A stretch of 64,000 nucleotides of DNA. Origin: a virus. The notes beneath the pieces are model-generated. The model was not told the origin of the DNA. It saw nothing but the letters and a program-made list of their open reading frames with translations, and searched no databases. How positions within the stretch are numbered: the first letter of the stretch is position 1; each line of letters opens with the position of its first letter. The stretch lies in IMG/VR virus record IMGVR_UViG_3300045988_183652, positions 1 through 64,000 of that record. One strand, written 5' to 3'. Below are positions 12,243 to 58,173 of the stretch, in pieces. Position numbers and translations under genes: made by a program.

Positions 12243-12327
12243 GGAGAGGTGGCCGAGCGGTTGAAGGCACCGGTCTTGAAAACCGGCGATGCGAAAGCAT
12301 CCGTGGGTTCGAATCCCACTCTCTCCG
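12243..12327 (+). tRNA. tRNA-Ser (anticodon TGA), CCA encoded (12328-12330)
   Basis: Cloverleaf with long variable arm (GGCGATGCGAAAGCATCC), anticodon loop cTTGAAa, T-arm GTGGGTTCGAATCCCAC. Confidence 0.85.
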
Positions 12328-12343
12328 CCAAAAGTAAAAAATA

Positions 12344-12477
12344 AGTACGGACGGTATAACCGGAATTAACGCCTGTGGAGATGCATGGTCATCGTGGAAG
12401 CAGGAATACTCTGTTAGCTGGTCATTCATGTGAGAGATGATGTCAGCACTTTTAGGGAACTGAATATGCCTGTGTCG
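12344..12477 (+). ncRNA. conserved ~135-nt array-leader / putative scaffold RNA element, copy A
   Basis: AGTACGGACGGTATAACCGGAATTAACGCCTGTGGAGATGCATGG...GGAATACTCTGTT..GCTGG..GTGAGAG...GGGAACTGAATA, shared at ~85% with copies at 43010, 44159, 45545 and more divergently 12711. Starts immediately 3' of tRNA-Ser. Confidence 0.5.
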
Positions 12478-12635
12478 GGTGTATGAAACCCTGAAAAAGC
12501 AGTGGTGTATACCATCAACGCAGTCCCATTAGAGTGCCGGAGAGGTATATAAAGCCCCGAAATAGCAGGGTTGTATACCATGTTGACTACGGGAATCACA
12601 GTATACAGGGCCTTAAAACAATAGGGTTATACACC
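12478..12635 (+). CRISPR. CRISPR-like mini-array A (3 degenerate 36-nt repeats, spacers 30 and 21 nt)
   Basis: Repeats at 12478-12513, 12544-12579 and 12601-12635, consensus GGTATAyAnnnCCCnGAAAnAnCAGGGTTGTATACC. Each repeat is an imperfect hairpin (GGTATACA...TGTATACC). Confidence 0.45.
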
Positions 12636-12685
12636 ACTCACGCATTCCTGTTGCTTGTGAGCACAAGATGCCAAATTTTGAAAAA

Positions 12686-12704
12686 GTGTGCAATGATTGC
12701 ATAC
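12686..12704. promoter_or_regulatory. palindrome GTGTGCAATgATTGCAtAC upstream of leader copy B
   Basis: A perfect version, GTGTGCAATGATTGCACAC, sits at 42971-42989, ~20 nt upstream of leader copy C. Confidence 0.35.
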
Positions 12705-12710
12705 TTAAAA

Positions 12711-12850
12711 AGTACGGATGGTATAACCGGAATTAACGCCTGTGGAGACGAACTCCGTCGCTAAAGCAGGAACTTGCCATGAGCTGAATTCTGCGTGAGA
12801 GGCGGTGCAACGCCGAGGTGGGAGTACCTTGGGGGAACATTAGCAAGCGC
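12711..12850 (+). ncRNA. conserved array-leader element, divergent solo copy B (no array)
   Basis: AGTACGGATGGTATAACCGGAATTAACGCCTGTGGAGACGAACTCCGTCGC...GTGAGAGGCGGTGCAACGCC...GGGGGAAC. It has the same architecture as the other copies but different internal hairpins. Confidence 0.4.
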
Positions 12851-22888: not shown

Positions 22889-22959
22889 GATGTTTTCTCC
22901 TTTCTCCCAGCCTGTGATAAGGACTTACGGGAAACCAAAATAAAATGTATATATAGAAA

Positions 22960-23095
22960 AAGACAATCACTGCCCGAAAAGGGAAGTGATTGTCTGAATT
23001 TGTGATGTGACTTGAAAAACGGAGATAAAACTCCTTATAAAAATATCTTCGTAATTATACTATTATACTACCACGTTTCGCTATTTTGTCAACAG
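22960..23095 (-). promoter_or_regulatory. promoter + leader-hairpin cassette M1 (family-1)
   Basis: Minus strand: TTGACA-N16-TAGTATAATAGTATAAT, then GGAGTTTTATCTCC hairpin, then the hairpin GACAATCACTTCCC-ttttc-GGGCAGTGATTGTC + U-rich tract before the RBS. Homologous cassettes are M2-M6. Confidence 0.55.
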
Positions 23096-23107
23096 CAGCA
23101 ACGTAAA

Positions 23108-23140
23108 AAAAGAAGCTCCCGAAGGAGCTTCTTTTGAAAT
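23108..23140 (-). terminator. terminator of operon 2
   Basis: GAAGCTCC-cgaa-GGAGCTTC hairpin with T7 on minus strand. Confidence 0.6.
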
Positions 23141-28661: not shown

Positions 28662-28889
28662 TTTATTCTCCTTTCTCTAAATCTGCTTGTAAGGCCCAAG
28701 TGTGATAGACAGGTTGTAGATATAATTACCACAACGCACACATTCGTCGTTCTTTCCCCACAAGCCGCTTGCTTTCATACCGCGCACGCTGCCTGTATAA
28801 TGGATAGACGGGTGTGTATCGCACTCGTGCTGGGTAAGCTCCTTTTGTTTCATGCGTTTTCTCCTTTCGTTTTTATTTGTTCTGAATAT

Positions 28890-29030
28890 ATAAAAAGACA
28901 GTCGTTCCCAAATGAGAACAACTGTCTTGAATATGATGATGTGACTGAAAACGGAGATAAATCTCCTTATAAAAATATCTTCGTAATTATACTACTATAC
29001 TACCACAATTCTTTATAATGTCAACGGAAA
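28890..29030 (-). promoter_or_regulatory. promoter + leader-hairpin cassette M2
   Basis: Minus strand: TTGACATTATAAAGAATTGTGGTAGTATAGTAGTATAATTACG; GGAGATTTATCTCC; AAGACAGTTGTTCTC-atttg-GGAACGACTGTCTT + UUUUUAUAUAU. Confidence 0.55.
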
Positions 29031-29039
29031 CGGTACAAA

Positions 29040-29075
29040 AAAAAGAAGCCCCCGAAAGAGCTTCTTTTTAAGTTA
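29040..29075. terminator. bidirectional terminator
   Basis: GAAGCCCCC-gaaa-GAGCTTC hairpin flanked by A8/T5. Confidence 0.55.
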
Positions 29076-32822: not shown

Positions 32823-32884
32823 ATTTTTCTCCTTTCTCCCAGCCTGTGATAAGGTCTTACGGGAACAAAAATGTAGTGAATATA

Positions 32885-33025
32885 TAAAAAGACAGTCGCT
32901 CTCAAAAGAGAACAACTGTCTTGAATGTGATGATGTGACTGAAAACGGAGACAAAGCTCCTTATAAAAATATCTTCGTAATTATACTACTATACTACCAC
33001 ATTTCCTTATAATGTCAACGGTTTC
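32885..33025 (-). promoter_or_regulatory. promoter + leader-hairpin cassette M3
   Basis: TTGACA...TAGTATAGTAGTATAATTACG; GGAGCTTTGTCTCC; AAGACAGTTGTTCTC-ttttg-AGAGCGACTGTCTT + U-tract. Confidence 0.55.
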
Positions 33026-33036
33026 GACGCAAAAGA

Positions 33037-33068
33037 AAAGAGCCGCATAGCGGCTCTTTTTTTTAGGC
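33037..33068. terminator. bidirectional terminator
   Basis: AGAGCCGC-ata-GCGGCTCT + T8. Confidence 0.6.
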
Positions 33069-35875: not shown

Positions 35876-35919
35876 TATGTTTTCTCCTTTCTTATTGTGT
35901 TTGTAATGTAAAAAAATAT

Positions 35920-36058
35920 ATAAAAAGACAGCTATCCCTGTTTTGGGATAACTGTCTTGAATACTTGGTGTGACTGGAAGCGGAGATAAGTCTCCTTATA
36001 AAAATATCTTCGTAATTATACTATTATACTACCACAATTATTTATAATGTCAACAATA
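35920..36058 (-). promoter_or_regulatory. promoter + leader-hairpin cassette M4
   Basis: TTGACATTATAAATAATTGTGGTAGTATAATAGTATAATTACG; GGAGACTTATCTCC; AAGACAGTTATCCC-aaaac-AGGGATAGCTGTCTT + U-tract. Confidence 0.55.
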
Positions 36059-36062
36059 GCAG

Positions 36063-36095
36063 AGAAAAAAGAGGCGGCTTTCGCCTGCCTCTTTT
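36063..36095. terminator. bidirectional terminator
   Basis: AGAGGCGG-ctttcgcc-TGCCTCT + T7. Confidence 0.55.
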
Positions 36096-40649: not shown

Positions 40650-41144
40650 AACAGCGTGGACAGGGCAAGAAAGGCTCGTTCGAAGGGCTTGTACCTAAAA
40701 TGACAATATTCTTGCGATTGTAAGAATAAGCGCCTAAGTTGCCCGTCCCGTTTTCTTCTTTCTTTATTTACACTCATAAGCACAATAAAGTCAGCTCCCT
40801 GAGGGAAGTGTGCGGGAGCTGCTTCGACTTTCGCGTTGTTCTCCATGCGGGGAGGTTCTGGCGGTTCGAGTCCGCACGGCGCGCCTTCTGTTTTCGCTGC
40901 TTCTATCTTCGCCTCCGTCTTTTTTAACGAGCAGCGGACACGGAAACATCTCTCAATATGATAGCGTAGCATAACTGGTAATGCCGTACCTCTCTCACAG
41001 GTAACGATATGTTGGTTCAACTCCAGCCGCTATTGCCAGCCGGCGTTCTACCCACCCCGCCGACATCAACTCTCTTCGGCGCTGGCGGCCTCCGTGCAGA
41101 CGGGATTACACGTGATAAGCGGAGGCTGCCAGCACCACCAAAAT

Positions 41145-41217
41145 GCTGGTGTAGCTCAGTAGGCAGAGCGGCGCATTCGTAACGCGCAGGTCGTGGGTTC
41201 GACCCCCACCGTCAGCT
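41145..41217 (+). tRNA. tRNA-Thr (anticodon CGT), CCA encoded
   Basis: 73-nt cloverleaf GCTGGTG/TAGCTCAGTAGGCAGAGC/anticodon loop tTCGTAa/GTGGGTTCGACCCCCAC; A31:C39 mismatch. Confidence 0.75.
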
Positions 41218-41302
41218 CCATTCCATACTCATTCTCCTTCAAGTGAAGCCCCCGTGTAACAGGTCTTTTGAAAAGTGCTTTCAGCCTCGTTGTGCGGGGG
41301 CT

Positions 41303-41375
41303 TCACGACTATGCTGATGTAGCTCAGTTGGCAGAGCGGCGGATTTGTAAACCGCAGGTCGGGGGTTCAAGGCCC
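41303..41375 (+). tRNA. tRNA-Thr (anticodon TGT), CCA encoded
   Basis: GCTGATGTAGCTCAGTTGGCAGAGC...anticodon loop tTTGTAa...GGGGGTTCAAGGCCCCC. Confidence 0.75.
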
Positions 41376-41423
41376 CCCATCAGCTCCATTAAAACCATGT
41401 GCTTTTGTGGTGTTTTTATATGC

Positions 41424-41497
41424 GCGGATGTCGTCTAATTTGGTGAGACACCAGCCTTCCAAGCTGGTCATTGCGGGTTCGAGTCCCGTCGTCCGCT
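41424..41497 (+). tRNA. tRNA-Gly (anticodon TCC), CCA encoded
   Basis: GCGGATG..anticodon arm CCAGC-cTTCCaa-GCTGG..GCGGGTTCGAGTCCCGT. Confidence 0.75.
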
Positions 41498-41500
41498 CCA

Positions 41501-41889: not shown

Positions 41890-42948
41890 ATGCCAACTAC
41901 ATTTCAAGCGTTTAAGTATCGCATTTACCCGACTGATGAGCAGGTCGAAATCATTGAAAAGACATTCAAGTGCTGCCGGTTTGTGTGGAACCATTTCCTT
42001 GAGCGAACCTCCAAAATCTATGACCGTCGGCAGGAAAAGATGACGACCTTCGACTGTATGAAGGTTCTCACGGAGATGCGGGAGCGCTGGCCTTGGCTTG
42101 CGGACTGCGGCTGTACGGCAGAGAGATATGCCATCATTGATTTGTTTGAGGCGCGAAAAGCGTTCTTCCGCCGCATTAAAGCGGGGGAGAAGCCCGGTTA
42201 TCCCAAATTTAAGGGCGCGTCCCATCCGACACAGAGTTTTACGACCGCTGGTACTATCTATGTGACGGACGATTACATTCAGGTTCCGTTTGGAGGACAG
42301 TATCAGAAAATCAACAAGCTCAGGCGAGGGACGGGGCGCCCCATCGAAGGGTCTCCCCGCGAGGTCACTATTTCTCGGTCTGCTACCGGAAAATACTGGG
42401 CATCTGTCTGCTGTAAAGTAGAGCGAGACACGCTGCCTATTGTGGACGGCGAGGTGGGAATCAGTCTCGGACTGAAGGAGTTGGCTATTGACAGCAACGG
42501 CGTTCACTATGAGAACCCGAAGCATCTGAGCAAGTCTGCAAAGCGGCTGGCCCGTGAGCAGCGGCGTCTATCCCGCAAGAAGAAGGGCTCTGTCAACTAC
42601 GAGAAGCAGCGGCGCAAGGTAGCCGGCGTCCATGAGCATATTGCCAATCAGCGCAATGACTACCGGCATAAAATCAGCCGTGAACTTGTCAACGCAAACC
42701 AGCTTATTGCCGTTGAGAAGGTGGCCGTTAAGCCCTTAGTTGAGGGCAATGAGCAGGCTAAAAGCATCCTCGATGCCGGCTGGTCTGAACTTACCGGTAT
42801 GATAAAGTATAAGGCGGACTGGGCTGGACGCACTCTGGTGGACGTAGATACCGCCACCGTAGCACCGGAAGCCAAGCATGATGAGGCACTGGCACAGGTC
42901 GTGCTGTCCGAAGGTCAGCGCAAGGCATCCGAGCAGAATCCTGCCTAA
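41890..42948 (+). CDS. TnpB-like protein, nuclease-dead and C-terminally truncated (TldR-like candidate)
   Basis: Start at ATG 41890 (MPTTFQAFKYRIYPTDEQ, classic TnpB/OrfB N-terminus; GGAG RBS). RuvC-I motif GxDxG reads GISLG (Asp->Ser). The RuvC-II Glu is retained (IAVEKV). The protein stops just after the YKADWAGR motif, with no zinc finger or RuvC-III. There is no tnpA nearby. Confidence 0.7.
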   Translation: MPTTFQAFKYRIYPTDEQVEIIEKTFKCCRFVWNHFLERTSKIYDRRQEKMTTFDCMKVLTEMRERWPWLADCGCTAERYAIIDLFEARKAFFRRIKAGEKPGYPKFKGASHPTQSFTTAGTIYVTDDYIQVPFGGQYQKINKLRRGTGRPIEGSPREVTISRSATGKYWASVCCKVERDTLPIVDGEVGISLGLKELAIDSNGVHYENPKHLSKSAKRLAREQRRLSRKKKGSVNYEKQRRKVAGVHEHIANQRNDYRHKISRELVNANQLIAVEKVAVKPLVEGNEQAKSILDAGWSELTGMIKYKADWAGRTLVDVDTATVAPEAKHDEALAQVVLSEGQRKASEQNPA

Positions 42949-43009: not shown

Positions 43010-43143
43010 GAGTACGGACGGTATAGCCGGAATTAACGCCTGTGGAGATGCATGGTCGTCGTGGAAGCAGGAATACTCTGTTGGCTGGTTTGTTATGTGA
43101 GAGGTGGCGACCAGCACTTTCGGGGAACTGAATACCTGTGCTT
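43010..43143 (+). ncRNA. conserved array-leader / putative guide-scaffold element, copy C
   Basis: GAGTACGGACGGTATAGCCGGAATTAACGCCTGTGGAGATGCATGGTCGTCGTGGAAGCAGGAATACTCTGTTGGCTGG...GTGAGAGGTGGCGACCAGCACTTTCGGGGAACTGAATACC. Confidence 0.5.
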
Positions 43144-43177
43144 GGTATACACCACCCGGAAATAACAGGGTTTTACC
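43144..43177 (+). CRISPR. single CRISPR-like repeat (array C, degenerate 3' end)
   Basis: GGTATACACCACCCGGAAATAACAGGGTTTTACC directly abutting leader copy C. Confidence 0.35.
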
Positions 43178-43277
43178 ATTCGTAATTATAGTTCTTCCCT
43201 CCGCTGTGTGGAGCGTTTTGTCGAAATGACAAAACATTCCTCTTAAATTCTTAAAAACAAGAAAGGAAATAAAGAAT

Positions 43278-43853
43278 ATGGAACCTTCTATCAACAGAAC
43301 TCTCACCGTCAGCGTCGTCAGCTATGGCGTCGTATCTGTCGTCAATGGAGTCATCAACGTTGACAACCAGAACCCCATCGAGTTTCCCGCCGTGCTGGAC
43401 GAGGCATCCGCTGCCAAACTGCTGAAGAGCAGATACGGCGGCAAGCTGTTCCCCGTGGACGCAAACATTGTCGTGTCTTCCATCCGGCATGAGAAATGGA
43501 AGTTCTCTATGGACCTGAGCCAGTTCGTTGCTACCGCTGCCCGCAGCCGCGTGGATGGAACCGAGTCCGGTGCTGATGATACCCCCGCAGAGGACGTTCC
43601 CGCCACTGAGCCGGCTGTTCCTGCGCCTGAGGGGACACCCGTTGCTTCTTCTATTCCCATGCCTCTGACGTCTGAGCCTGAGGAGAGTTTTACACCTACG
43701 CCCCCCGAAGTGCCTGCTTCAGCCGGCGGCTTCGCCCCTGAGTCTCCCACTGCTGCGCCTGCCGCTCCCGCAAAGGAAGTTCCCTACGGCGGCAACTTCA
43801 ATTTCCCCTCCGAATTTGGCGGAGACTTCGGTTCCGGCTTCTTTGGCGGATAA
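43278..43853 (+). CDS. hypothetical protein with Pro/Ala/Glu-rich C-terminal half
   Basis: AAAGGAAATAAAG RBS; 191 aa. Confidence 0.45.
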   Translation: MEPSINRTLTVSVVSYGVVSVVNGVINVDNQNPIEFPAVLDEASAAKLLKSRYGGKLFPVDANIVVSSIRHEKWKFSMDLSQFVATAARSRVDGTESGADDTPAEDVPATEPAVPAPEGTPVASSIPMPLTSEPEESFTPTPPEVPASAGGFAPESPTAAPAAPAKEVPYGGNFNFPSEFGGDFGSGFFGG

Positions 43854-43860
43854 TGGGCCG

Positions 43861-44028
43861 ATGGACATTGTGAACGTTGGCCGGGGGTGTCTTGATTGCA
43901 TCAACAAGGAGAATCCTACGACCAAAGAGCCGTGCAAGAGCTGTTCGCGCTGGAGCAGGTGGGAGCCGGATGATAAGTCCAAAGAAAAGGTGACGGTACA
44001 GGACGCAAGGAAAAGGGCGAAGAAATAA
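43861..44028 (+). CDS. small CxxC...CxxC protein
   Basis: MDIVNVGRGCLDCINKENPTTKEPCKSCSRW; start chosen downstream of the track start; weak RBS. Confidence 0.3.
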   Translation: MDIVNVGRGCLDCINKENPTTKEPCKSCSRWSRWEPDDKSKEKVTVQDARKRAKK

Positions 44029-44100
44029 TACGGCTCAAAAATGATGATGAGCACCTGCGGCGCAAGCTCGAAATCGTTGCTGTCTTTGGCGACAAACATA

Positions 44101-44140
44101 CAGCGGCGCAGGCCCTTATCCGGCGCCTGCGCCGCTTTTC
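44101..44140 (+). terminator. terminator
   Basis: GGCGCAGGC-ccttatccg-GCGCCTGCGCC + GCTTTTC. Confidence 0.5.
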
Positions 44141-44158
44141 ACTGAAAATCTCAAAAAC

Positions 44159-44290
44159 GAGTACGGACGGTATAACCGGAATTAACGCCTGTGGAGATGC
44201 ATGGTCGTCGTGGAAGCAGGAATACTCTGTTGGCTGGTCTTCACGTGAGAGGTGATACCGGCACTTTCGGGGAATTGAATACCTATGCTG
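44159..44290 (+). ncRNA. conserved array-leader element, copy D
   Basis: Near-identical to copy C. Confidence 0.5.
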
Positions 44291-44457
44291 GGTATACACC
44301 ACCCGGAAATAACAGGGTTGTATACCACTCGACCGCCCCACTAACCCCGTGGGGGAGGTATACACCCCCAGAAATAACAGGGTTGTATACCATTGCAAAT
44401 GAGCTCTTTTGCGGTCTTGAGGGTATATACCACCCGGAAATAACACCGTTGCATACC
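44291..44457 (+). CRISPR. CRISPR-like array D (3 repeats of 35-36 nt, 2 spacers of 30 nt)
   Basis: Repeats at 44291-44326, 44357-44391 and 44422-44457. Spacers are actcgaccgccccactaaccccgtggggga and attgcaaatgagctcttttgcggtcttgag. Confidence 0.5.
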
Positions 44458-44494
44458 ATATAAATAAGATAGTCTACAGGGAGGAGGGAGCTTA

Positions 44495-45016
44495 ATGGCC
44501 TCGAAAAAGATATATAGTTCCCCTGAGCTCTATGAAGATAAGCTGGTGCGCGTGATGGCGCGTCTTGGTATTGAAGTTGGTGACTACAACTACGACTGGA
44601 GTCGTCAGGAATGTTGGGTCGAGTTCAGATACAAGGGGGAATATTATCGCTTTTCTCACAGTGTAAAGAACGCTCAAGAGCACGGCATCTCCCTGCAGTA
44701 CGGCTCCGATGCCTTTGCACAGGTCGTGCTCTCTTTGGAAGACCTCGCCCGTATGGTCGAACGAGGCATCTACGACCTGTCTACATGGGTGGCCGGCATG
44801 AAAGCCCTGCCGAAGCGCTCCGAGTCATTAGATGCCTGCTTTATTGCTCTCGGTTTCGTAGAGCCGCCAACATCCAAGGAAGAAATCACACTCCACTATC
44901 GGCGGCTGGCAAAGGTATATCACCCTGATGCCGGCGGCGATAGCTGCTCATTTGATGCGCTATCTAACAACTACACAAAATGCATGGAGATGTTCGAGGA
45001 GGCTGCCGAGAAGTAA
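44495..45016 (+). CDS. J-domain (DnaJ-like) protein
   Basis: C-terminal ITLHYRRLAKVYHPDAGGD (HPD motif); GGAGGGAG RBS. Confidence 0.5.
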   Translation: MASKKIYSSPELYEDKLVRVMARLGIEVGDYNYDWSRQECWVEFRYKGEYYRFSHSVKNAQEHGISLQYGSDAFAQVVLSLEDLARMVERGIYDLSTWVAGMKALPKRSESLDACFIALGFVEPPTSKEEITLHYRRLAKVYHPDAGGDSCSFDALSNNYTKCMEMFEEAAEK

Positions 45017-45522
45017 TGTATATGTCTCAGAAAGAGTTCAATGCAATGATGAAGAAAAACCCCCGCCTCCGTGTTCACGGTGCAAACAACACACGCGAAC
45101 ATCGTTCCAAGGCGAACAAGGCGGCAAAATATAGAAACGTAAAGGTCTACGAGTACGCCGATGGGCTGTCCTTTTTCGGTAAGCCCCGCAATAGTGGTGA
45201 ACTCCCTATCGCTGTCTATGACAGTAAGAAGGAGTACCACCGCTGGAAAGAGCTTCAGATTCTGGAGCGCGGCGGACATATCCACGACCTTCGCCGGCAG
45301 GTGCCTTTGACCATCATTACCGAGTTCGAGTATCGTGGTCAGAAGGTCTCCGGTATTACTTACAAAGCCGACGCCGTCTATGTGCGCGACGGCAAGTGTG
45401 TGGTAGAGGACGTGAAGCCCTTCGATACCACAACGCAGAAGTATCGAACTACAAAGGATTTCAACCTCAAGTGGAAGCTGCTCAAGGCTGAATATCCTGA
45501 GTGGAGCTTCGAAATTTTTTAG
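45016..45522 (+). CDS. hypothetical protein
   Basis: Start at TAATG overlap (MYMSQKEFNAMMKKNP...); GAGGAGG upstream. Confidence 0.45.
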   Translation: MYMSQKEFNAMMKKNPRLRVHGANNTREHRSKANKAAKYRNVKVYEYADGLSFFGKPRNSGELPIAVYDSKKEYHRWKELQILERGGHIHDLRRQVPLTIITEFEYRGQKVSGITYKADAVYVRDGKCVVEDVKPFDTTTQKYRTTKDFNLKWKLLKAEYPEWSFEIF

Positions 45523-45544
45523 CGTAACAGGTTTCAAGAACAAC

Positions 45545-45678
45545 GAGTACGGACGGTATAACCGGAATTAACGCCTGTGGAGATGCATTGTCGTCGCGGA
45601 AGCAGGAATACTCTGTTGGCTGGTAGTCACGTGAGAGGTGGCACCAGCGCTTTGGGGAACTGAATATATCCTGTGCCG
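45545..45678 (+). ncRNA. conserved array-leader element, copy E
   Basis: GAGTACGGACGGTATAACCGGAATTAACGCCTGTGGAGATGCATTGTCGTCGCGGAAGCAGGAATACTCTGTTGGCTGG... Confidence 0.5.
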
Positions 45679-46118
45679 GGTGTATGAGGGCCTGAAATGA
45701 CAGGGGGTATACCCTAACAGCGCAGTAACGTTTAGTGAAGTACGGGTGTATAGAGTCCTGAAACAGCAGGGTTGTATACCATGGAAATGTTCGGCTGACG
45801 GTGCAACACAAGACCACGTGTATACACCACCCAGAAATAACAGGGTTGTATACCCCTTGTTATATGAAAACACCATGGAAAACAGGTATACACCACCCCG
45901 GAATAACAGGGTTGTATACCATGGAGGATGGGCGCTTCACCTTGCAGGTGGGCGTATAAAGCCCTGAAATATCAGGGTTGTATACCTGACTCGTGATGAT
46001 ATTCTCACCGCAGTACGGTATATAGAACCCCGAAATAGCATGGTTGTATACCCTCTCGACTGCAATGAAAAAGCACTACAAAGGTATATAGAGCCCTGAA
46101 ATAACAGTGTTGTATACC
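45679..46118 (+). CRISPR. CRISPR-like array E (7 degenerate 33-37-nt repeats, 6 spacers of 30-38 nt)
   Basis: Repeats start at ~45679, 45745, 45818, 45885, 45954, 46017 and 46083. All end in GTTGTATACC (or GGGTATACCC) and begin with GGTrTAyA. Spacers are unique. Confidence 0.5.
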
Positions 46119-46341: not shown

Positions 46342-47139
46342 TTGGAAAGCACAAGCAAAAAACAAGTAAAATGGGGGATTTTCAAGACTGCACTCTTTAC
46401 GTTCCTGTTCGTCGCCGTATCCGCTTTCTACTTTCTCTCCGCCAACGTGACACTCGCACAGGCCGAAGAGCACTCAAACCACGAGGTGCCTCCTGCTGGA
46501 GCAGCGGTTGCCACCCAGATGGACGACACCAAGCTGTCGGAAAAAGCGCAGCAAGATGTTCTGGAACTGAAGGAAGGAGTTCTCGACCCTCTTTCCGACA
46601 TCACAGAAGCAGAGAACTCTGAAGATGACCCCGACGCCGTGGAGGAAGTACAGGAAGTCGTTCCGACAGTCTGTTCCTACTGCGGCTCTGAGAACCATAG
46701 TTCCTCAATCTGTGCAAAGAGGTCTATCGCCAATGGTGCCTATGGGCGCTGGGCGATTCCGTCTGTTGGCTGTAATGTAGCGGCCTACTCGTGTAACTGG
46801 GATGCAGACCAATCCTATATTCAGGAAATTACTGACAGCTCCGACAGTGCAGCTTTTTTGACTTGCGGCGGCGTTGGTGTTCTTGCAGACCACAATAACC
46901 AAGGTTTCTTGGGACTTTCCAATGTTTCTGTTGGCACGAAAGCCTACATGGACTTTGGTGATGGCGCAACTTACTACGAGTGCTATCAGGTTGAATACGG
47001 ACACAATACCGGCGAAAAGATGCTCGATGGAAATGGAAACATAATGAGCTACAGTAACTATTCTTCCGGCACTGTGATTTGTTACACCTGCCTTGACCAC
47101 TGGACCAACATTTACATCACTTACTGGACGCCGGTATAA
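46342..47139 (+). CDS. secreted/membrane-anchored CCHC zinc-knuckle protein, paralog 1
   Basis: TTG start with GAAAGGGGA RBS. N-terminal signal/TM segment, acidic linker, CSYCGSENHSSSIC (CX2CX4HX4C), then a conserved C-terminal domain (ADHNNQGF...YxCxxxxYGHN...YTCxDHW). Confidence 0.55.
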   Translation: MESTSKKQVKWGIFKTALFTFLFVAVSAFYFLSANVTLAQAEEHSNHEVPPAGAAVATQMDDTKLSEKAQQDVLELKEGVLDPLSDITEAENSEDDPDAVEEVQEVVPTVCSYCGSENHSSSICAKRSIANGAYGRWAIPSVGCNVAAYSCNWDADQSYIQEITDSSDSAAFLTCGGVGVLADHNNQGFLGLSNVSVGTKAYMDFGDGATYYECYQVEYGHNTGEKMLDGNGNIMSYSNYSSGTVICYTCLDHWTNIYITYWTPV

Positions 47140-47180
47140 GTGCCAGACACCCACTCTCTACTCTAAGAAAGGACGAAACC

Positions 47181-47981
47181 ATGAAAACGAAATTCAAAAT
47201 CCCTCGGTGGGCACTCTTCACCGTTATCATTCTGGCCTTTATCGGTGGTCTCTTTGCCATCTCCATGCTGCCTGCTTTCGCATCACGTGAAAGCTCTCCG
47301 CCTTTGGCAGTAGCAGAAGCCGCGCAGAACGAGGAAAAGGACGCAAATTCTGATGCTCAGACTCCCGAAGCAGACAAGACGACAGATGAACAGGGAAGTG
47401 CTGAAGCCCCCGCAGAGGCCGCGTCTCAGGCAGACGACGCCGTCGTTGTCGAAGAGACTCCCGCCGAAGCGCCTGTTCAGGAAACCCCGACTACCTGTTC
47501 CTACTGCGGCAGTGCAGAACACACCAGAGACTACTGCGCCGTTCGTGCCGTTGACAATGGTGCCGTTGGCCGGCTCCGGATTCCCTCTGTCGGTGTTGAC
47601 GTGGCTGTCTACGACGTTACTTGGTACTCTCTGCAGCATACCACCGAGAGTGACAACTACACGCAGGCCGTTACAGATGCATGGGACAGCGCAGCACAAA
47701 TCGTCTATCTCGGCCAGACCGTTATTGGCGACCATAATAATCAGGGCTTCTCCACCATCAACAACTGCTCCGAAGGCACCTACGCTTACATCGACATGGG
47801 CGACTCTGTCCTGACCTATGTTTGCACCGGCATCCAGCATGGTCGTAACCCCGGTGGCTATCTCACCGGTGCCGATGGCGATAGCATCTATACCTCTTAC
47901 TTCAATCCCAACGGTCTGACGCTGTATACCTGTCTCGACCACAACTTCAATGTTGCCCTCGTGACATTCCAGCCTGCTTAA
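47181..47981 (+). CDS. secreted CCHC zinc-knuckle protein, paralog 2
   Basis: Signal/TM anchor, A/E-rich linker, CSYCGSAEHTRDYC, GDHNNQGF...YTCLDHN. Confidence 0.55.
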   Translation: MKTKFKIPRWALFTVIILAFIGGLFAISMLPAFASRESSPPLAVAEAAQNEEKDANSDAQTPEADKTTDEQGSAEAPAEAASQADDAVVVEETPAEAPVQETPTTCSYCGSAEHTRDYCAVRAVDNGAVGRLRIPSVGVDVAVYDVTWYSLQHTTESDNYTQAVTDAWDSAAQIVYLGQTVIGDHNNQGFSTINNCSEGTYAYIDMGDSVLTYVCTGIQHGRNPGGYLTGADGDSIYTSYFNPNGLTLYTCLDHNFNVALVTFQPA

Positions 47982-47997
47982 AGGGGGTGCAGCTTTA

Positions 47998-48771
47998 ATG
48001 AAAACAAAGAAGATTTCCCGCCGCGCTGTTACGCTGGCTGCCTTTTTGCTGGTAAGCGCATCATCTTTACATATGGCTTGTGCAGAGGCTGCGGTGCCGT
48101 TCGATTACTTTACTGATGACCTCTCTGTGTCCGCTGCCGCCGTTGCTGAGGAAGATAAATACCTGCCTCCTGAGTGGTTCACAAAAGAAAATGCTGTAAG
48201 TGAAGTAGACTCAGACACGCCTCCGGTGGAGACTCCTACCCCTGCGGGCGAATCCTCTGTGGCGACCCCCGTGCCTGAGCCCGCACCGGAAACCGCAGCA
48301 GCCTGCAGCTATTGCGGCAGCGCAGGGCACTCGCAGAATAGGTGTGCCGTTTACGCTGTCGAACAGCGAGGTGCCGTTGGGCGTTGGTCTATCCCTTCTA
48401 TTGGAATAGATGTCGCTTGCTTCACCTATGTGCTTGGAAGCGATTCCTTCGAGTACGGACAGGCAATTTGTGACGCTGCCGATAGTGCCGGCTACAGTGC
48501 GTATGGGAGCCAGTATCTCATTGCAGACCACAACTATCAGGGCTTTTCTGCCATAGCCAACTGCGCGGTCGGTGCGGTGGGATATATGGATTACGGAAAC
48601 AGTCGAACAGAATATGTTTGTACTGGGGTGGAGTATGGGCACAATGAAGGCACGGAACTGACTGATAATGACGGAAACGATGTTGCGTACAACAACAGTG
48701 GAGGAATTACCCTTTACACCTGTTACAACGGCTGGCAAAACGTCGTCATAGCGTATTTTACTCCGGTTTAA
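47998..48771 (+). CDS. secreted CCHC zinc-knuckle protein, paralog 3
   Basis: Signal peptide, CSYCGSAGHSQNRC, ADHNYQGF...YTCYNGW. Confidence 0.55.
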   Translation: MKTKKISRRAVTLAAFLLVSASSLHMACAEAAVPFDYFTDDLSVSAAAVAEEDKYLPPEWFTKENAVSEVDSDTPPVETPTPAGESSVATPVPEPAPETAAACSYCGSAGHSQNRCAVYAVEQRGAVGRWSIPSIGIDVACFTYVLGSDSFEYGQAICDAADSAGYSAYGSQYLIADHNYQGFSAIANCAVGAVGYMDYGNSRTEYVCTGVEYGHNEGTELTDNDGNDVAYNNSGGITLYTCYNGWQNVVIAYFTPV

Positions 48772-49157: not shown

Positions 49158-50735
49158 ATGCCTACAGAAAGAAAGAAGAAAACAACAAAAGAAGAAAACG
49201 CAAAAAATAACTCAACAAAAAACACAATAAAAAAACCAAGAAACTCAACAAGTAACGCGAAAAGCAAGAAAGAAAGCAAGTCTCTTTTGGGGTTAAAGGA
49301 CCTGATGGAAGATACGTCTCCGGAAAAGGTCGTCGGCTGTTATGTTCGCGTGTCTACCGATGCACAGGCGGAGCAGGGATATTCTATACCTGACCAAACA
49401 GCCAAATTGCAGGCCTTTTGCACCGTAAAAGGCTGGGAGAACGCGAAATTCTACACGGACCCCGGATTCAGCGGCAGCAACTTAAATCGACCGGCAATGC
49501 AGGAAATGATATCCGATGCGATGGAAGGGAAGCTGAAGGCGGTTGTCGTCTTCAAGCTGGACCGCCTCTCCAGAAGTCAGAAGGATACTCTTTATTTAAT
49601 AGAAGATGTATTTCTTCCGAACGAGGTGGATTTTGTAAGCATTTCCGAGGCCCTCGACACTACCACTCCTTATGGACGAGCGATGATAGGCATTTTGAGC
49701 GTCTTCGCCCAGTTGGAACGCGAGAATATCTATATGCGAACCCGTATTGGAATGATGGGTCGTGTAAGTGCGGGGTATTGGCGTGGCGGTGGAAAAGTTC
49801 CGTTTGGCTATGATTATGATAAGGAAAGCAAATCCCTTATCCCAAACGCTGACGCACCAAAAGTGCCGCAGGCTTACGACCTCTACATCAAGGGCTATAG
49901 TTGCCAGAAAATTGCGGATATGCTCGGACTAAGTTGCGAACAGCTCGTGAGGAATATTCTCACCAAGCGCACATATTGCGGCTACATCAACTACAAAGGT
50001 AAAGACTATAAGGGTTTCCACGAGCCTTTGATTGATGAAGAGCGGTTCATGCTCGTGGCCGCAGAAATGGAACGCCGTGGGAAGGAAAATCTCGCAGTAT
50101 GCGGCAACAATAAATATTATCTTCTTACCGGGCTTGTTTTCTGCGGAGATTGTGGAGCCAGAATGCGGTACATGAAGTGGGGGAAGTATATCCGTATCGT
50201 CTGCTACTCGCACACGTGTAAAAAGAACATGGTTAAGGACCCCGATTGTCCGAACAAGGGAGTTCGCGCAGAAGAACTTGAGAAGGTTGTTGTCTCAAAA
50301 CTTTTTGACATTGGTACTGACATTTCTCTCGACGATTTTGACGACACCCACGTGCCTGCAAGTGCAGCAGAAATCCTGACGAACCGGATAGATGAGCTGA
50401 AGGAGTCTCTCAGGCGCCTATATGGGCTCTATGCCGACATCGGAGACCCCATGGTGTACGAGCGCATTGAGGATGTGCGAGGACAGCTCCACGTATTGCA
50501 GAGACAGCTTGCAAGCGAGGAAACGCAGAAACTCAAGGAAGAGCACATCAACTACGTCCGTGAGAAAATTCAGACTATTGGAGACCTCTGGCCCCATCTT
50601 ACTCCTATGGAGCGCCAAACTCTTGTTCGTGATTGTGTTGAGAAGGTTATTTTGCATCACAACGGACGTGTTGAGGTTTACTACACTTTCCATACTGAGA
50701 AAGATAGTAAAATTCTCAAAAGGAAAGGCGCATAA
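49158..50735 (+). CDS. large serine recombinase (integrase/resolvase family) with Lys-rich N-terminal extension
   Basis: Catalytic domain VGCYVRVSTDAQAEQGYSIPDQ (Ser nucleophile), recombinase and zinc-ribbon domains (CGDCGARMRY...C...C), coiled-coil C-terminus; GGAAAGGGGA RBS. Confidence 0.8.
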   Translation: MPTERKKKTTKEENAKNNSTKNTIKKPRNSTSNAKSKKESKSLLGLKDLMEDTSPEKVVGCYVRVSTDAQAEQGYSIPDQTAKLQAFCTVKGWENAKFYTDPGFSGSNLNRPAMQEMISDAMEGKLKAVVVFKLDRLSRSQKDTLYLIEDVFLPNEVDFVSISEALDTTTPYGRAMIGILSVFAQLERENIYMRTRIGMMGRVSAGYWRGGGKVPFGYDYDKESKSLIPNADAPKVPQAYDLYIKGYSCQKIADMLGLSCEQLVRNILTKRTYCGYINYKGKDYKGFHEPLIDEERFMLVAAEMERRGKENLAVCGNNKYYLLTGLVFCGDCGARMRYMKWGKYIRIVCYSHTCKKNMVKDPDCPNKGVRAEELEKVVVSKLFDIGTDISLDDFDDTHVPASAAEILTNRIDELKESLRRLYGLYADIGDPMVYERIEDVRGQLHVLQRQLASEETQKLKEEHINYVREKIQTIGDLWPHLTPMERQTLVRDCVEKVILHHNGRVEVYYTFHTEKDSKILKRKGA

Positions 50736-57331: not shown

Positions 57332-57389
57332 AAATGTTTTGTTTTTTGTGAGGTTGAGATTTGGTTATTGATGTAGTTTTTTTATATTA

Positions 57390-57527
57390 AAAAAGACAGC
57401 TATCCTTCAAAAAGGATAACTGTCTTTGATAAATGATGGTGTCTTGAAACGGAGATAAATCTCCTTATAAAAATATCTTCGTAATTATACTACTATACTA
57501 CCACGTTTCATTATTTTGTCAACAGGA
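57390..57527 (-). promoter_or_regulatory. promoter + leader-hairpin cassette M5
   Basis: TTGACAAAATAATGAAACGTGGTAGTATAGTAGTATAATTACG; GGAGATTTATCTCC; AAGACAGTTATCC-tttttgaa-GGATAGCTGTCTT + UUUUUAAUAUA. Confidence 0.55.
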
Positions 57528-57621
57528 CAAGGCGAGAAAAAATGAGGTTTTTCCCTGTGGTTATTGCACGTGTGAAATTCTTCTGATATACTTTATAGCA
57601 CGATAGAGAGGGGGCTTTTGT

Positions 57622-58173
57622 ATGGGCCATTATGAGCGTATTTCGGTTGGCGATAAGATAAAAGAGCTCGCCACCAACGAGATTATGATTCGGATGTCCT
57701 TTGATTCCTCGGTAGGATGGAAGCTCGTTGTCGGCTTCCCTGAAATGAGAAAGGAAGAGAACGACGCCTTTATATACGGAGATTTACTGGCGGCTTTCAC
57801 TGTGGTCATGGATACACCATTCTTCTTGTTCTCCTTCGGAGGCGGGCCGTGGATGGATACGCCATTTGAGCCGCGTATTGATGCCTCGCTGCCCTCCTTT
57901 GACATACAACTCGATGACGGTGACGGACTTGGCCTTCTCGTCATGTCTGTTGACACGAAGTATGGTGAGGTAAAGGGCTTCAGGCAGGTGGGGCTTGGGC
58001 ATGGACTCAGCATGAAGATACTCTCCGTTATGCGAGAGCTTCAGCAGCGTCCGCCCATAACACAAGAGGAACACAGGAGAAACATCGAGCGAGCCTATCG
58101 TACATACGGGCTGCCGGAAGATATGCTTCGCACGGTGAAACCCGATGAGGTGTTTGCCATCATTAACACCTAA
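57622..58173 (+). CDS. hypothetical protein
   Basis: 183 aa; GAGAGGGGG RBS; lone plus-strand gene between two minus operons. Confidence 0.45.
   Translation: MGHYERISVGDKIKELATNEIMIRMSFDSSVGWKLVVGFPEMRKEENDAFIYGDLLAAFTVVMDTPFFLFSFGGGPWMDTPFEPRIDASLPSFDIQLDDGDGLGLLVMSVDTKYGEVKGFRQVGLGHGLSMKILSVMRELQQRPPITQEEHRRNIERAYRTYGLPEDMLRTVKPDEVFAIINT

Follow-up and report, generated by a model that had tools for sequence, protein, structure and literature searches.

What can short arrays of hairpin repeats and unique spacers be doing beside a TnpB derivative that has lost the ability to cut DNA? The question is raised by positions 1 to 64,000 of the IMG/VR virus record IMGVR_UViG_3300045988_183652, a stretch of 64 kb that is called the window here. 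Five copies of an element of about 133 nt, referred to below as the scaffold, were found in the window, all of them on the + strand, and four of the five run within 0-5 nt into 36-nt hairpin repeats that lie on the same strand and recur with a 66-nt period. We favor, at a probability of about 0.6, the reading that these units encode multiplexed guides for the dead TnpB, and that this protein would silence matching genes by binding to their DNA.

The five scaffold copies reported in a first-pass annotation of this DNA were recovered by alignment and by nhmmer (E-value = 1e-42 to 4e-15), and the repeats of the four arrays, named A, C, D and E after their scaffolds, lie exactly where that annotation had placed them, although the repeat of array C is truncated. 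Scaffold copy A (12344..12477, + strand) begins 13 nt 3' of the tRNA-Ser gene (12243-12330), not directly at its 3' end as had been proposed, and is followed by array A (12478..12635, +), which has three repeats (12478, 12544 and 12600) and two spacers (30 and 20 nt); the third repeat, behind the spacer of just 20 nt, is degenerate. Scaffold copy B (12711..12838, +) is diverged and has no array. A promoter-like box lies upstream of it (12678-12705). Neither its would-be guide nor the constant junction of scaffold and repeat was found at a second place in the window. Scaffold copy C (43010..43143, +), which is omegaRNA-like, begins 61 nt 3' of the stop codon of the dead tnpB gene. Its array (43144..43175, +) consists of one repeat cut to 32 of the 36 nt, and two to four repeats (2-4) occupy the same locus in sister elements. 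Scaffold copy D (44159..44290, +) leads into array D (44291..44457, +; three repeats at 44291, 44357 and 44422, with two spacers of 30 nt), and scaffold copy E (45545..45678, +) into array E (45679..46118, +), with seven repeats (45679, 45745, 45819, 45885, 45951, 46017 and 46083) and six spacers, the first repeat (45679) being 35 nt and one spacer 38 nt long.

When up to three mismatches (<=3) were allowed, the repeat 21-mer GAAATAACAGGGTTGTATACC occurred 10 times in the window, every time on the + strand and within an array, against 0 expected from 100 shuffles; no repeats were found in the window outside the arrays or in the opposite orientation. Tandem Repeats Finder did not detect the arrays in the window, because the spacers are unique, and Rfam at its gathering thresholds returned tRNAs only. 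A proposal that the hairpins are clusters of repetitive extragenic palindromes (REP, or the mosaic elements built from them, BIME) or IS605 subterminal hairpins was rejected, since the repeats keep a single orientation, stand only downstream of scaffolds and are separated by unique spacers.

The TnpB derivative and the origin of the guides

The gene upstream of scaffold C (41890..42948, +) encodes a protein of 352 aa after correction of the start codon. Pfam recognized the domains HTH_OrfB_IS605 and OrfB_IS605, with the TNB domain matched at only 24 of its 60 positions. The score against NCBIfam guided_TnpB was 252.7 bits (cutoff 100), and the nearest solved structure is that of ISDra2 TnpB (8H1J; E-value = 2e-49 over residues 6-322). 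In an alignment with active relatives (49-53% identity), the RuvC-I motif reads GISLG instead of GIDxG, so that the Asp is replaced by Ser while the Glu is kept, and both the zinc finger and the RuvC-III block DRDxNAA are missing, with a short unrelated tail in their place. Pfam and the alignment thus bear out the early recognition of a nuclease-dead TnpB at this position. Orthologues (78-99% identity) carry identical lesions and keep the same neighbors in related loci, namely a RecG-like helicase gene upstream and a Pro-rich gene downstream in L001, L002 and L010, and the dead tnpB gene, conserved at 87-99% identity in many contigs, always stands beside scaffold C. No TnpA was seen near the dead tnpB gene, and the window contains no second dead tnpB copy. 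By its sequence, the 352-aa protein is a TldR as defined by Wiegand et al. (PMC10705468). A second clade of truncated TnpB derivatives (P0022 and P0026; ~320 aa), which lack the RuvC-I motif and share 44-46% of their residues with the window protein, might represent a further TldR-like lineage of independent descent.

The absence of Cas1 and Cas2 noted at first pass was not contradicted: neither was among the 25 best families listed for the 74 open reading frames (ORFs) of the window searched against PADLOC, nor in Pfam scans of 26 ORFs, and neither was seen in 35 kb of additional sequence beyond the window.

Three features of the scaffold, GCCTGTGGAG, GAAGCAGGAAT and a hairpin with a GTGAGAG loop, recur in the 3' region of an active relative (P0005), and the scaffold 5' module aligns just past the stop codon of an active 372-aa TnpB of sister elements (E-value = 1.5e-4 in a 4.8-kb search). 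In an RNAalifold consensus of 59 distinct sequences of scaffold plus first repeat, 98.4% of the cells are paired. A check for covariation found compensatory change in 26 cells, which cluster in the GTGAGAG hairpin, where shuffled alignments gave 3.0 +/- 2.6 cells in all (0/500); the structure was derived from the same sequences on which it was tested, and most of its helices never vary. There are many invariant G-U pairs, and because such pairs function in + strand RNA alone, the scaffold looks like a structured RNA of the + strand. On these sequence comparisons, the scaffold, which is about 90% conserved over more than 100 copies, is a homologue of the omegaRNA, the guide-RNA scaffold that belongs to TnpB of IS200/IS605.

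The active 372-aa TnpB, with an intact DED triad and zinc finger, belongs to a TnpB-only insertion sequence (IS) found in L010 (2373-3754), L042 (8143-9521) and L001 (11908 onward). The copy in L010 is inserted just upstream of a tRNA cluster and has an 8-bp duplication (GGTTCTGG) at its flanks, an uncommon feature in IS200/IS605.

At its right end, the active IS has the layout ...GGTATATTC(34 nt)GAATATCC, ending in ...AAAAGGTTGAATATCC, after which the flanks differ between insertions, and the repeat has the layout GGTATACA(20 nt)TGTATACC, after which the spacer begins. The 5' part of the repeat resembles the 5' module of the scaffold (GGTATAACCGGAATTAAC) and its 3' part resembles the scaffold end (GGGGAACTGAATACC), so that the repeat would be a cut-down scaffold, composed of the 5' module and the guide-adjacent 3' end (...GGGTTGTATACC); the resemblance of the scaffold 5' part to the repeat, noticed at first pass, fits such a mini-scaffold. 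Because the repeat resembles the last hairpin of an omegaRNA, each spacer occupies the position of a TnpB guide. The 3' half of the repeat (CAGGGTTGTATACC) is nearly invariant; substitutions in the 5' half are A/G and C/U exchanges, which wobble pairing accommodates, and 92.8% of the cells are paired. By eye, the five bases that directly precede the guide position could base-pair with a pentamer of the 5' module in the main scaffold type (GGUAU:AUACC), in the diverged copy B of L042 (GGUAC:GUAUC), in the active IS (GGAUG:UAUCC) and at a putative boundary in L003 (GGGUA:UACCC). These few cases suggest a guide-adjacent helix, which the repeat hairpin would reproduce in cis.

Spacers and their matches

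Searches with an exact scaffold 20-mer gave 69 IMG/VR stretches, and those with a 23-mer gave 75 stretches of human-gut metagenomes. The 155 related human-gut loci contain 255 scaffold hits and 224 arrays, and in 213 of these arrays the first repeat is 0-20 nt from the end of a scaffold; the remaining 11 arrays lie at locus ends or consist of a single repeat. The arrays have 1-9 repeats and 157 unique spacers, most often of 30 nt (249/439). Contigs that look complete (132-134 kb) carry 7-9 units and one dead tnpB gene. Within IMG/VR, the repeat 21-mer is confined to contigs of the scaffold family.

The spacers vary between strains, and array content differs even between elements with 99% identical dead TnpB. 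At orthologous loci, elements share the spacers at the trailer end and differ in the scaffold-proximal ones; recombination between arrays could also give this pattern, since the same spacer families recur at different loci. Only 16% of the pairs of adjacent repeats are identical, and degeneration is strongest in the repeats that close an array. The stretches that follow these closing repeats were considered as further guides and rejected, because they are conserved flanks and not variable. An inverted scaffold copy that directly follows an array at a contig end (L002, 12957-13038) is probably an assembly artefact.

About eight of the 157 unique spacers (about 5%) have matches, which fall in an excisionase/integrase (xis/int) locus, in serine recombinases and in one gene of a sister element. 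Five or six spacers, including one from the window, match a single 1.7-kb locus that consists of an excisionase-like gene (HTH_17, a helix-turn-helix domain) and a tyrosine integrase gene. This locus was found in six gut-bacterial contigs (L156-L161) in a conserved chromosomal context, beside giant surface-protein genes. Over the ribosome-binding site (RBS) and ATG of the excisionase-like HTH gene the match there is 30/30, and towards the 3' end of that gene it is 29/30; the integrase gene is matched at 31/31 (antisense) and the leader at 21/22. The window spacer concerned, spacer 5 of array E (45987..46016, +), matches the tyrosine integrase gene at its TRDDILAAV motif on the sense strand. 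It agrees with L157 (10565-10594) at 24 of 30 nt, four of the six differences being synonymous third-position changes, and at 8/9 residues on the peptide level, where shuffled spacers reach 6 at most; another spacer matches the integrase at 7/9 residues (maximum of 6 in shuffled spacers). In the INPHARED search, three spacers from different contigs matched MT835962.1. When all spacers were compared with this record by local BLAST, one more was found to match, at an omegaRNA-like leader that lies just upstream of the genes targeted; all four sites lie inside a 1.5-kb stretch.

One further spacer, carried by a sister element, corresponds to the VIVKDMSRLG motif of large serine recombinases, with 29/29 identity in five phage-like records. 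The window encodes a large serine recombinase of its own (49158-50735; Resolvase, Recombinase and Zn_ribbon_recom) that lacks this protospacer. A spacer of the sister element L130 matches 27 of 30 nt on the sense strand of a window ORF (58003-58032, in ORF 57622-58173), with conservative codon differences, and could point to targeting between relatives or to self-regulation. Seven of the eight matches have the same sense as the coding strand or operon; therefore the guide would pair with the template strand of the DNA, and simple antisense pairing with mRNA is ruled out. No internal spacer matches were found elsewhere in the window, the spacers had no match in PLSDB, and the xis protospacer was not found in the GTDB representative genomes.

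In a gut-bacterial chromosome, an orphan omegaRNA-like 5' module (L157, 9777-9860; equivalent to L074, 1782-1860) lies about 220 nt upstream of the excisionase/integrase pair. It is itself matched by a spacer, and might be what is left of an IS, or else serve as a leader RNA or as a decoy.

Proposed silencing and its rivals

In the mechanism that we propose, each unit would be expressed from the + strand as a full omegaRNA-type scaffold (~133 nt) followed by one to nine (1-9) cassettes, each made of the 36-nt hairpin and a spacer of ~30 nt, and the RNA would be processed. The dead protein, unable to cut DNA, would bind the unit RNAs and occupy matching DNA, the guides pairing mostly with the template strand, inside genes or at gene starts, and this occupancy would block transcription, as it does with TldR and Cas12m/Cas12c. 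The targets would be the recombination genes of other integrated or temperate elements (the excisionase-like HTH gene, the tyrosine integrase, the leader and the serine-recombinase motif), and the ~133-kb carrier would thereby interfere with the excision or integration of co-resident elements, which may be the benefit that it gains. Among the options listed in the first-pass annotation, a TldR-like or type V-U-like multi-guide system is accordingly the one favored, given the omegaRNA-derived scaffold, the adjacent truncated ISDra2-like dead TnpB, the tying of 213 of 224 arrays to scaffolds, and the strain-variable spacers, some of which match foreign recombinase genes.

Several observations weigh against the silencing mechanism. 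Spacers with any match make up about 5%, no more. ISDra2-like TnpBs and TldRs normally need a transposon-adjacent motif (TAM) of 5 nt; no TAM consensus was found 5' of the protospacers in seven flanks, which showed only a weak A at -3. The targets lie mostly inside ORFs and not in promoters, unlike those of known TldRs. Two window spacers scanned in IMG/VR returned only arrays and no targets, and a conserved spacer core of sister elements was not found in the GTDB representative genomes. The repeat hairpin shows no two-sided compensatory change. A tracr-like anti-repeat had been suggested, but RNAduplex and cofolding gave no convincing or extended anti-repeat between scaffold and repeat: the complementarity is short (about 6-9 bp, GGTATAACC with GGTTGTATACC). 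In addition, the hairpin-spacer units lack the central scaffold helices, and their loading onto the protein is hard to explain.

The best of the rival explanations, though an unlikely one, is that the arrays guide an active nuclease in trans (the 372-aa TnpB of the IS, a host TnpB, TranC or Cas12), so that the targets would be cut and the dead protein would be a bystander or competitor. Some sister elements do encode an active TnpB, 51% identical to the dead protein, only a few kb away from the dead gene, and the 5' module and terminal GGTTGAATATCC motif of its omegaRNA are also present in the scaffold and repeat. However, the active IS is absent from the window and from most related loci, its sites vary as for a mobile insertion, and its RNA is unlike the scaffold in the central part; it is the dead gene that is conserved and constantly paired with scaffold C.

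Mobile elements are known to carry repeat mimics, and units that are multi-copy and highly conserved could be taken for decoy RNAs, a sponge against host CRISPR or TnpB systems that mimics the host guide scaffold and repeat. We regard such a decoy as quite improbable: it would have no need of unique spacers, yet the 157 distinct spacers turn over between strains and several of them match one locus, and the element encodes a matching protein of its own.

Every unit is intergenic and co-oriented with its flanking genes, and no strong promoter of their own was predicted for copies A, C, D and E; both facts would suit cis-acting RNA structures that serve the downstream cassettes as 5' untranslated regions or in processing or termination, the spacers being mere linkers. 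But hypervariability between near-identical elements is not to be expected of linkers, and neither are matches of 29-31 of 30-31 nt to integrase and excisionase genes of foreign origin; moreover, one type of unit precedes unrelated genes, which makes this explanation very improbable. The idea that the units are decaying IS200/IS605 right ends, or REP-like hairpin clusters without present function, is hardly tenable, for although the scaffold descends from an IS end and orphan or partial scaffolds exist (copy B, L074 and partial nhmmer matches), the scaffolds are well conserved in their many copies and show compensatory changes, the arrays keep strictly to one strand, have a 66-nt period and are linked to scaffolds, and the family is widespread in human gut samples.

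If the units do guide the dead TnpB in silencing, they might even represent a still existing intermediate stage through which CRISPR arrays came into being, a wider proposal that we hold only tentatively and consider rather doubtful. It supposes that the terminal hairpin and guide module of an omegaRNA was serially duplicated behind an intact scaffold, that the arrays still gain scaffold-proximal spacers without a Cas1-Cas2 of their own, and that a plasmid- or phage-like gut element would silence resident integrases and excisionases through a nuclease-dead TnpB and so control their mobility.

TldRs are TnpB-like nuclease-dead repressors (Wiegand et al., PMC10705468; 10.64898/2026.09.22.753285), and the window system resembles them in its ISDra2-like TnpB derivative with a deteriorated RuvC and without the C-terminal zinc finger and RuvC-III, in its location outside a transposon on a mobile element, in the omegaRNA-descended scaffold encoded just downstream, and in the proposed RNA-guided DNA binding that would block transcription. 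TldRs, however, have one adjacent guide RNA with a guide of 9-16 nt, target a promoter that borders a TAM of 5 nt and are associated with fliC or oppF, whereas the elements described here have five to nine (5-9) dispersed scaffold units, each with an array of hairpins and 30-nt spacers. Their matches fall mostly inside or at the start of recombinase genes, with no evident TAM: where a TldR would have a promoter with its cognate TAM, we find sites at the RBS and ATG, inside ORFs and in a leader, with no shared 5' motif.

TranC and type V-U systems are regarded as intermediates between TnpB and Cas12 (Jin et al. 2025, as cited in 10.64898/2026.03.27.714800; PMC10691335). TranCs are reported to have a TnpB-sized effector, repeats of 32-38 nt, short arrays (3-20 repeats), no adaptation genes and omegaRNA-descended guides, all as in the window, and occur in gut Clostridia and a Caudoviricetes genome. 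They are reported to be active nucleases with a separate trans-activating CRISPR RNA that pairs with the repeat; the window effector is dead, a full scaffold stands in cis ahead of every array, and the repeat is a self-complementary hairpin. The similarity of the 352-aa protein to LaTranC is marginal (E-value = 1e-11 over 80 residues), and the sequences indicate an origin independent of LaTranC.

Direct repeats with unique spacers, a 66-nt period and spacers that match foreign elements are also features of type V CRISPR-Cas, from which the window system differs in that its effector has no active RuvC. Cas12m (V-M) and Cas12c (V-C) are likewise borne by mobile elements, usually without adaptation genes, and act by interference without cutting and in competition between elements (PMC10442227, PMC12669027, PMC11656645). 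They are, however, much larger proteins of other branches, with RuvC-dependent processing of CRISPR RNA and near-identical repeats, unlike the rarely identical adjacent repeats of the window family (16% of pairs). The omegaRNA arrays of sigma-factor-associated dead TnpB/Cas12f (PMC10691335; PMC13472631) share with the window a dead effector and irregular guide arrays thought to result from omegaRNA duplication. In those systems whole omegaRNAs are repeated (>60 bp), the partner is an extracytoplasmic function (ECF) sigma factor and the outcome is activation, whereas in the window repetition is limited to the terminal module, and a sigma factor is not among the adjacent genes. Finally, the mini-CRISPR arrays of viruses and plasmids (PMC11656645) are similarly short, carried on a mobile element without cas1/cas2 and aimed at other mobile elements; they copy a host repeat and borrow host Cas proteins, whereas the window repeat appears to come from the element's own omegaRNA.

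About 50 independent transitions from TnpB to type V effectors have been counted (10.64898/2026.03.27.714800; PMC10691335; PMC12669027), and parts of the present concept are not new, given TldR, TranC, and the silencing and inter-element competition of Cas12m/Cas12c. The locus combines features of TldR, TranC and Cas12m, and we did not find described a system that combines a dead TnpB of the ISDra2-like kind with several dispersed arrays, each of which has a full scaffold in cis, with repeats derived from the scaffold by shortening, and with spacers against integrase and excisionase genes. The locus would link the single-guide repressors derived from dead TnpB (TldR) with the TnpB-sized CRISPR effectors (TranC), and the scaffold in cis, together with visibly cut-down repeats, offers a concrete picture of how the one-guide RNA of a transposon might become a multi-guide array. 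It also points to mobile elements in the human gut that would program the silencing of integration and excision genes of other elements, as a form of inter-element control. A putative DNA-binding protein of 352 aa with naturally multiplexed 30-nt guides and a possibly relaxed TAM would, moreover, be an attractive compact scaffold for CRISPR interference.

The carrier element and other features of the window

The carrier is an uncultured mobile element of the human gut, about 133 kb in size, whose contigs are labelled viral in IMG/VR. No capsid, terminase or tail genes were seen in about 100 kb examined, and because of this the viral label may be wrong, or the element may be a phage-plasmid. 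The genes that were recognized include RepL-like, ParA and ParB genes, several DNA methyltransferases, several helicases, a PemK/MazF toxin and a large serine recombinase, and the element also encodes a 1120-aa SHIRT-domain surface protein (loci L132, L139, L148 and L152, on contigs of ~133 kb). Identification as a phage, which the IMG/VR labels suggest, is weakened by the unseen virion genes and by RepL, ParA, ParB and the SHIRT-domain protein. The carrier could be a plasmid, or else a phage-plasmid, that resides in a Bacillota host. The locus had no megablast match in INPHARED. The scaffold had none in PLSDB, where the best TnpB match was 40% identical.

Regarding the other genes of the window, the J-domain protein that had been listed near the units scored 24 bits in Pfam, below the cutoff of 27.8 bits. 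One of the 74 window ORFs, not among the ten large unannotated ORFs that were rescanned, matched the PADLOC entry 'Csx1 (found elsewhere)' with an E-value of 3.5e-26. A tandem of three paralogous genes (46342-48771) encodes secreted proteins of 265, 266 and 257 aa, which have the motifs CSYCGS..H and DHNNQGF in common and no Pfam match. The five tRNA genes of the window, for Glu, Thr (two), Gly and Ser, are located at 40960-41500 and 12243-12330. A family of 173-nt direct repeats, unrelated to the scaffold, is present in five copies (22946-23118, 28878-29050, 32872-33044, 35907-36079 and 57376-57548) with 62-89% identity to the reference copy. Lastly, a promoter-like box of 36 nt, ACTTGACATTATTTTATGTTCGTGCTAATATGAAAT, which resembles TTGACA with an extended -10, occurs in four copies (1463, 9880, 40619 and 49079) and may be the element's own type of promoter.

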